DNA of 4,704 bases, taken from the IMG/VR virus record IMGVR_UViG_2690316115_000002; one strand, given 5' to 3'. Positions 3,546 through 4,441 of this stretch are shown here, in pieces; within the stretch, counting starts at the first letter, position 1, and each line of letters starts with the position of its first letter. This DNA comes from a virus (Duplodnaviria; Heunggongvirae; Uroviricota; Caudoviricetes). Both the position numbers and the translations under genes were made by a program. The notes under the pieces were generated by a model, which saw only the letters and a program-made list of their open reading frames with translations, did not search any database and was not told the origin of the DNA.

Positions 3546-4441
3546 GCGGCAACACCTCCGATACGAGAACGGTAGCTGGGCCAGTTAAACGACAACCAGT
3601 TGCGCCCGCCATCGGTGATCCTGTCGGCAATCCGGGGACTGATGAACGCCCACAATTCTTCCGGTGAAAGGTTGCTGATCAGGATAGTTGGCAAAATACC
3701 CTCATACCGGGCATTGATAATTTCCTGCAAAATGGCCATTTCAGCCGCACTGCCAAACTGAACGCCGACTTCGTCGACAATCAGCAAATCCAGTGACGCA
3801 TAATGCTCAATGACGTCATCCGCTGTTTTTTCACTGTCATTCCGCCAGCAGTTTTTCACAGCCCGGGTAAGGCGCATCACGTCGGTGATCTCCACACTGG
3901 CCAGATAGTTACGGATGATGTGTTTTGCCATTGATACCGCCAGATGATTTTTCCCGGTACCGCAACTGCCGGTCATAACAAGACTGGTACCGTTCTCCAG
4001 CATATCTGGCCAGTTCTCCGCATAGCGGCGACAGGCCGCAAGATTTCTGGCTGCGTCAGGATTAACCTCCAGATAATTATCAAACTCACAGTCCCGAAAA
4101 CGCAGAGCAATTCCGGCGTTATCAGTCAGTTCTTCCGCCTTGAGGGACGACAGTTCCATGGTCAAATCACTGGCCTCAGCGATCAAGCAGTCAGGGCAGC
4201 ATGAAATTTTTTCTCTGTCCTCGCCATTACGATCGATCCACACCAGTATATGCGTACGATATTTACCGTGTTTTTCGCAATATCCGCGACCTTCACGCAT
4301 CAGGCAGGAACGATAAGGCCATGGCTTTTCGCCCTTCTGAGCAAATGCAATCTCTGCCCGTAACTCATCCATTTCTGCCCGTAACTCATCCATTCGCGCC
4401 TGTAGTCTTGTTTGTTTCTCACGTTGGTCAATCGTCATCAT
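3542..4441 (-). CDS. DnaC-like helicase loader (AAA+ ATPase, DnaC/IstB family) with an N-terminal coiled-coil and Cys-cluster extension (299 aa from ATG 4441)
   Basis: C-terminal ~190 aa align by eye to E. coli DnaC: Walker A GSCGTGKNHLA (DnaC GKPGTGKNHLA), Walker B DLLIVDEVGVQ (DnaC DLLVIDEIGVQ), C-terminus FNWPSYRSRIGG (DnaC FNWDSYRSRVTG). The ORF track starts at GTG 4450, but that GTG lies inside the SD GAGGTG; ATG 4441 with a 6-nt spacer is preferred. Confidence 0.9.
   Translation of the reverse strand: MMTIDQREKQTRLQARMDELRAEMDELRAEIAFAQKGEKPWPYRSCLMREGRGYCEKHGKYRTHILVWIDRNGEDREKISCCPDCLIAEASDLTMELSSLKAEELTDNAGIALRFRDCEFDNYLEVNPDAARNLAACRRYAENWPDMLENGTSLVMTGSCGTGKNHLAVSMAKHIIRNYLASVEITDVMRLTRAVKNCWRNDSEKTADDVIEHYASLDLLIVDEVGVQFGSAAEMAILQEIINARYEGILPTILISNLSPEELWAFISPRIADRITDGGRNWLSFNWPSYRSRIGGVAA
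4353..4394. repeat. Perfect 21-bp direct tandem duplication (2 copies) inside the DnaC-like gene, in frame
   Basis: 4353-4373 and 4374-4394 are both tctgcccgtaactcatccatt, identical by direct reading; flanking bases differ on both sides. Encodes MDELRAE-MDELRAE (residues 17-30 of the loader). Confidence 0.95.

Follow-up and report, generated by a model that had tools for sequence, protein, structure and literature searches.

The loader gene and its replication module

The window, by which we mean the whole stretch of DNA that was analysed (4,704 nucleotides), carries a helicase-loader gene with a tandem repeat near its 5' end, a helicase gene beside it and a remnant of a replication-initiator gene next to an insertion sequence. 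The features referred to below are as follows.

2145..3545, minus strand: DnaB-like replicative helicase, 466 aa (Pfam DnaB_C, E = 8e-74; ORF coordinates)
3542..4441, minus strand: helicase-loader gene, predicted DnaC/IstB-type AAA+ ATPase, 299 aa (Pfam, phrog, DnaC profile and Foldseek)
4353..4373, minus strand: repeat copy 2, identical to copy 1, encoding M24-E30 and supplying, with its first base, the end of the junction Glu codon GAA
4374..4394, minus strand: repeat copy 1, 5'-proximal in the gene, AATGGATGAGTTACGGGCAGA, running from the last base of R16 through M17-A22 to the second base of E23
4450..4453, minus strand: Shine-Dalgarno sequence GAGG, 8 nt upstream of the ATG at 4441
4452..4604, minus strand: 3' remnant of a replication-initiator gene (last 50 codons and TGA), the translation of which is identical to the C-terminus of the intact gene in the AZ146 prophage (L001)
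4605..4704, plus strand: left end of an IS3-family insertion sequence, matching multicopy 'IS3 family transposase' loci at 100%

The gene at 3542..4441 was assigned by its sequence to the DnaC/IstB-type AAA+ helicase loaders, for which helicase binding and loading are the predicted functions. It matched Pfam IstB_IS21 (E = 4e-14, above its cutoff), phrog_50 'DnaC-like helicase loader' (E = 2e-87) and E. coli DnaC 6QEL (E = 4e-38, profile positions 85-290, C-terminal tail included), and the top three Foldseek matches were DnaC chains, with 6QEM/6QEL as the best. The Walker A (GxxGTGKNH) and Walker B (LLIxDEVG) motifs of the IstB/DnaC clade were found, and G158, G161, T162, G163, K164, D223 and E224 were invariant in an alignment of 55 sequences. 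The preliminary description, which had placed the repeat in the N-terminal part of a helicase loader, is borne out by these matches. The loader scored 124.9 bits with the NCBIfam DnaC equivalog NF005931, the match being confined to residues 94-296. As this is far under the equivalog cutoff of 357, the protein is a phage paralogue with a different N-terminal domain and not the host DnaC itself. The loader most likely starts at ATG 4441, judging from the Shine-Dalgarno sequence and the RefSeq start of identical genes; the GTG at 4450, which opens the mechanically called 302-aa ORF, falls within the Shine-Dalgarno sequence.

The stop codon of the loader and the start codon of the helicase overlap in an ATGA at 3542-3545, which makes translational coupling of the two genes probable, and the loader was found beside a DnaB-family helicase in the same arrangement in every relative fetched. 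Beyond the helicase, an 85-aa ORF, a DUF968/HNH gene and an antiterminator Q gene are located downstream, and this gene order is the layout of a lambdoid prophage replication/late-control region. The DUF968/HNH-like gene (849-1844, minus strand), which separates the 85-aa ORF from Q, occurs both in the window and in relatives L003, L004 and L007-L009 and is missing from the AZ146 prophage, which is another mosaic difference around one loader allele.

On the other side of the loader, the homology of the window to intact prophages ends at 4604, and the best full-window matches in complete E. coli genomes go no further. The initiator gene has been cut to its last 50 codons by the IS3-family element at 4605, and the junction at 4604/4605 was not found in GTDB species representatives or metagenomes, nor among the best complete E. 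coli matches. Due to this truncation, the replication module in the window is probably defective, whatever loader allele it carries, and this copy of the loader is probably not under selection, as the adjoining initiator gene has been destroyed.

In relatives with an intact initiator, the genes upstream of the loader are mosaic beside one loader allele (L001:4911-5897, L009:5952-6878, L006:439-1443 and L007:5931-6923). Their N-terminal parts are unrelated, with HTH_36 in one and no Pfam domain in the others, while the ~50 residues at the C-terminal end, on the loader side, are conserved. Such a pattern would be expected of a protein with a C-terminus in contact with the loader or helicase and an N-terminus that recognises a phage-specific origin.

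A perfect 21-bp tandem duplication in the loader gene

Tandem Repeats Finder detected a repeat with a period of 21, 2.0 copies and 100% matches (score 84) at 4353-4394. A search of the window with the 21-bp unit (AATGGATGAGTTACGGGCAGA on the coding strand), allowing up to 3 mismatches, returned only the two copies at 4374-4394 and 4353-4373, and none of 200 dinucleotide-preserving shuffles of the window contained any match to it. The repeat is in frame within the minus-strand ORF at 3542..4450, so that the loader contains MDELRAE twice in succession, as residues 17-23 and 24-30 of its 299 aa, and the perfect in-frame duplication of this heptapeptide reported in the preliminary description was thus recovered by both methods. 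The unit is offset by one base from the codon phase, and the Glu codon at the junction is GAA while the second one is GAG. In alignments with single-copy relatives, copy 2 is the extra 21 nt without a counterpart. A second, weak tandem repeat in the helicase gene (2436-2456; period 11, 1.9 copies, 90% identity, score 35) is probably due to chance.

The array is exactly 42 nt long, and it is flanked at both ends by a G on the coding strand, each unlike the corresponding end of the unit. The boundaries of the duplication are therefore unique, and no microhomology was found at its junction. The slipped-strand or unequal-crossover event first suggested is therefore no more than a possible origin, as such a junction gives no evidence of classical slippage between pre-existing short repeats.

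Lambdoid origins are formed by iteron arrays inside replication genes, as in lambda O and P22 gene 18. Hence it could be supposed that the two 21-mers act at the level of DNA, as protein-binding sites or iterons within the coding sequence, for example as part of a phage origin. This is extremely improbable, since most functional relatives, including phiP27 and the Stx phages, lack the second copy and the 21-mer occurs nowhere else in the window. The flank is not AT-rich, and imperfect repeats within an AT-rich stretch are found in the upstream initiator gene instead. Origin iterons were rejected on these grounds, with only two copies present. In the most AT-rich part of the AZ146 initiator (L001:5226-5414), imperfect short direct repeats of 15-16 nt with spacings of 23 and 33 were observed; these are candidate origin iterons, and two-copy families of short repeats such as these may also occur by chance.

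One-copy and two-copy alleles across genomes

The loader gene was found in 283 of 5,426 complete E. coli genomes. The 42-mer was present in 143 of the 5,426, which is half of the gene carriers, always in this gene and at one place per genome. The two-copy genomes were counted with the 42-nt double unit, which megablast cannot seed on a single copy. The array was perfect in 130 of them and had one mismatch in 13, namely GAG to GAT in repeat copy 1, which results in E19D. An exact 42-mer, with two copies in each case, was also found in 43 IMG/VR contigs. In a collection of 15 billion proteins, the exact two-copy protein was present on at least 1,000 contigs, with names including O25b:H4-ST131, the E19D two-copy protein on 888 contigs and the single-copy protein of the same haplotype on 328. 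Other near-identical two-copy members of the 90% cluster bear the names of Shigella dysenteriae, S. sonnei and S. flexneri, and the loader protein cluster contained E. coli and Shigella alone. Many partial copies of the loader were seen in S. flexneri, on contigs of 3-5 kb, which makes a Shigella-like source rich in IS elements plausible for the window.

The repeat had also been considered as a possible assembly artefact. Assemblers can err at short perfect tandem repeats, and the source genome could then truly have one copy. This explanation can be given almost no weight, because 143 independent complete genomes, produced in many laboratories and on many platforms, have the identical array, besides the viral contigs and the protein collection mentioned above. 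In addition, any sequencing read is far longer than an array of 42 nt, which rules out its collapse or expansion during assembly.

The 42-mer had no match in 185,579 species-representative genomes. A single copy is carried by each of the 54 further loaders compared, which come from E. coli, Klebsiella, Salmonella, Enterobacter, Citrobacter, Serratia, Raoultella and Pantoea. The length of the loader across the Enterobacterales is 292-293 aa, and in the alignment of 55 representatives the 7-residue insert was unique to the two-copy allele, with the spacing between L13 and F33 otherwise fixed. The diverged E. coli lineages STEC313, G6/7 and E300010 (83-97% protein identity) have one copy as well. 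The loader of phiP27 is spanned in two aligned pieces of 886 bp in total, 21 bp less than for the two-copy gene, and therefore has one copy. None of the 20 sequenced phage records with the loader, mostly Stx phages from other sublineages, is two-copy, and none reaches the identity of at least 99% that every two-copy allele has. The alignments of the Stx phages break off within the repeat, at query position 831; the prophage lineage that matches them (strain G6/7, L003) is single-copy.

No array of three copies was found in the 5,426 E. coli genomes, where there was one place per genome, or in the 43 IMG/VR contigs. A perfect three-copy 63-mer had no match in 241 M metagenome records, and none of the homologues or members of the protein cluster compared had the 306 aa expected from three copies.

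By this comparison, one copy is the ancestral, family-wide state, and the two-copy allele is a common allele that segregates in the E. coli/Shigella prophage pool. This agrees with the earlier suggestion of a simple length polymorphism between isolates, here of one versus two copies. The count in homologues that had been proposed as a check gave a single copy in the diverged relatives, so the two-copy arrangement is not fixed across the family. In the literature, we found no paper describing the 21-bp duplication and none joining phiP27, DnaC and helicase replication.

Haplotypes and age of the two-copy allele

All 45 two-copy genes that were fetched at full length shared the same junction. 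They fell into 10 haplotypes, 0-5 substitutions from a central one that was held by 28 of the 45. As the junction is common to all and the haplotypes are close to one centre, the two-copy allele is apparently of single origin. Variants that are typical of single-copy lineages were seen in some of the two-copy haplotypes with several substitutions, a sign of recombination. The E19D change, which leaves the repeat imperfect, was found on two different 3' haplotypes of the loader (copy 1 at L005:1501-1521 in MS20645 and at L006:1501-1521 in SW070917), and this points to recombination of alleles or recurrent mutation.

The single-copy genes of NR3736 and 20AR0300 had 0 differences from the central two-copy haplotype at the shared loader positions (879 nt in the annotated CDS, or 888 nt with the upstream GTG as the start). 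Between NR3736, with one copy, and CEA601S, with two, there were about 8 SNPs and the indel over 6.2 kb of prophage, upstream of which the initiator N-terminal regions were unrelated. An identical helicase protein, WP_000203849.1, is paired with both one-copy and two-copy loaders. Once formed, two perfect 21-mers would be a substrate for slipped-strand contraction. The single-copy alleles on the shared haplotype could therefore be slippage revertants or, alternatively, the surviving direct ancestor.

Among the two-copy alleles there were 7 synonymous and 5 non-synonymous changes (roughly dN/dS 0.2), and no frameshift or stop interrupted the ORF in any of the 45 genes. These figures are weak evidence for continued purifying selection on the loader gene.

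Relative to the gene family the duplication is young, yet it is shared by many isolates. The two-copy allele has been passed on, has been recombined into several phage mosaics with different initiators and is starting to diverge. Describing the event as recent is therefore right with regard to the age of the family, and wrong if it is taken to mean a private mutation, since there are at least 10 haplotypes and the sub-allele with the changed copy 1 is itself widespread.

The presence of one- and two-copy alleles side by side on the same haplotype, together with the ability of two perfect 21-mers to slip, could suggest a hypermutable contingency locus (VNTR), in which frequent changes in copy number tune or switch the loader. 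There is a precedent in another E. coli prophage gene, neuO of the K1 prophage CUS-3, in which slipped-strand changes in the poly-psi repeat add heptads RLKTQDS (PMC3046976). Like the loader, neuO has tandem repeats near its 5' end that add whole heptads to the N-terminus. Its unit, however, is 7 nt, present in 2-93 copies, with high-frequency frameshift phase variation and graded enzyme activity (PMC3046976), whereas the unit in the loader is 21 nt, present in 1 or 2 copies only, always in frame and stably inherited. The loader insert is also situated in a structured helix, while the neuO heptads are in a disordered extension. A contingency locus is very improbable here because only two states were seen, on/off switching is not possible with a unit that is a multiple of three, and the two-copy allele has been inherited stably enough to gain up to 5 substitutions.

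The N-terminal domain and the predicted geometry of the longer helix

The loader consists of an N-terminal helix (residues 4-36), a Cys3His beta-module (47-79), a helix (83-108) and an AAA+ core (about 120-290). AlphaFold2 (AF2) models of the full-length loader (pLDDT 87) and of residues 1-115 alone (pLDDT 86) concur on two long helices, the first at 4-36 and the second from residue 83, with three beta-strands at 47-79 between them. Four residues, C55, H58, C82 and C85 (C55-x2-H58...C82-x2-C85), were invariant in the 55-sequence alignment, which suggests what is presumably a Cys3His zinc site in the beta-module; their spacing is unlike that in DnaI (PMC2673437). The extreme N-terminus of the family is conserved as well, with the consensus MLNxxQRxERxxL.

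The first ~115 residues had no match in the curated Pfam or NCBIfam models. The domain they form (4097-4441, minus strand) is covered only by phrog_22964, labelled 'unknown function', and gave no specific structural match. The domain is apparently a module not described before, probably with bound zinc and a role in helicase interaction, and it is conserved across Enterobacterales prophages.

The best structural match of the loader, at 28-30% identity over about 204-214 columns, is E. coli DnaC (6QEL/6QEM), with which the AAA+ core, the preceding linker helix and the C-terminal FNWxSYR tail can be aligned. The loader gene also adjoins, and is probably coupled with, the gene for a DnaB-family helicase. 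The homology begins only at residue 42 of DnaC, however, and DnaC has no counterpart to the first ~85 residues of the loader with their long helix and Cys3His beta-module. In DnaC, it is the N-terminal helical region that binds the helicase, with residues 8-11 and 31-44 contacting the C-terminal domain of DnaB (PMC4705694). In the DnaC-family loader DnaI of Bacillus subtilis, an N-terminal domain with a Cys3His zinc site mediates helicase binding, for which the zinc module is needed (Loscha et al. 2009, PMC2673437). The N-terminal domain of DnaI would be the nearest functional analogue of that of the loader, although the latter does not have the DnaI-N fold of four helices and two strands. By analogy with both DnaC and DnaI, the N-terminal hairpin is probably the helicase-binding part of the loader. 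The closest phage relatives are the loaders of phiP27 and the Stx1a- and Stx2a-converting phages, which belong to the same family, have the module order initiator-loader-helicase and share 85-97% nucleotide identity with the loader; these are single-copy or have less than 99% identity to the two-copy allele.

In the models, the insert lies in the middle of the amphipathic N-terminal helix, which is predicted to run antiparallel to the second long helix in a hairpin capped by the Cys3His beta-module. Helix 1 is continuous at high confidence across the insert. Its hydrophobic residues follow a continuous 3-4 spacing, with L13, L20, L27 and A34 at d and M17, M24 and I31 at a, and MDELRAE corresponds exactly to heptad positions a-g (M17 at a, L20 at d). 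The a/d seam L13-M17-L20-M24-L27-I31-A34 is therefore unbroken, and the continuous a/d hydrophobic pattern within a predicted helix that is characteristic of coiled-coil-type segments was found.

Because the duplicated peptide is exactly one heptad, the helix would become longer with its register kept. Helix 1 would gain seven residues, that is about two turns or 10.5 A, with the hydrophobic seam in phase. The preliminary description was correct about the two additional turns, and its proposal of a shift in the coiled-coil register does not hold, as the helix is merely lengthened. The conserved extreme N-terminus (Q6-R7...L13) would be moved one heptad further from the zinc cap, and one arm only of the hairpin would be lengthened. 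From the sequences, this elongation appears to be tolerated, and to be near-neutral or mildly modulatory.

Two observations count against a tolerated insert, namely that none of the 20 phage isolates has two copies and that the initiator in the window is destroyed by the IS element. Both would be expected of a loss-of-function or decay allele, in which the insert damages the loader and persists only in non-replicating cryptic prophages, and the absence of any other indel in the L13-F33 segment of the family would be in line with such damage. A decay allele is nevertheless distinctly unlikely. The intact ORFs and the ratio of synonymous to non-synonymous changes among the two-copy genes speak against it, other carriers keep intact initiator, helicase, DUF968 and Q genes, and the insert is a full heptad in a confidently predicted continuous helix.

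The lack of other indels between L13 and F33 also argues that the length of the helix matters and that the insert may not be neutral. One possibility is that the number of heptads in helix 1 is a molecular ruler that spaces the extreme N-terminus from the zinc cap, and that the extension alters helicase loading and has spread by selection; we consider this unlikely. If it were true, loading efficiency, the choice between phage and host DnaB or the sensitivity to a host or phage inhibitor would change, and E19D would lock the longer form against loss by slippage.

More generally, the extra heptad could have been selected for an altered geometry between loader and helicase, with effects on loading efficiency, helicase specificity or escape from an inhibitor, which would explain why around half of the carriers have it. 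In favour of selection are the apparent functional constraint on the otherwise invariant helix length, the high frequency of the two-copy allele in several mosaic contexts with different initiators, and the occurrence on two 3' haplotypes of E19D, which would stabilise the repeat by making it imperfect. On the other hand, hitch-hiking in clones that are heavily sampled, ST131 for example, can account for the high frequency, no co-adaptation is visible with a helicase protein that is the same for both alleles, and the one-copy allele of the same haplotype is common too, as its 328 contigs illustrate. Selection for the extra heptad is therefore a credible, if unlikely, explanation.

Implications

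Taken as a whole, the observations are with high probability explained by a derived, apparently single-origin, in-frame 21-bp duplication in the DnaC-type loader gene of lambdoid prophages, which constitutes a tolerated length polymorphism. The main value of the analysis is as a correction, as the duplication is neither an artefact nor a hypervariable locus and leaves the register unshifted.

The two forms are natural, near-isogenic loader alleles that are paired with the same helicase protein, agree at all other positions and are one heptad apart in the presumed helicase-binding hairpin, and their practical value is modest. The 21-bp indel is also a handy PCR marker for tracking the prophage replication module in E. 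coli and Shigella lineages. The N-terminal domain in which it lies, consisting of a helix, a Cys3His beta-module and a helix, is outside every curated domain model or solved structure.

The duplication is ordinary in kind, most likely a tolerated length polymorphism, and it can be seen as a routine case of a prophage gene in which a short tandem duplication has given rise to alleles of different protein length.
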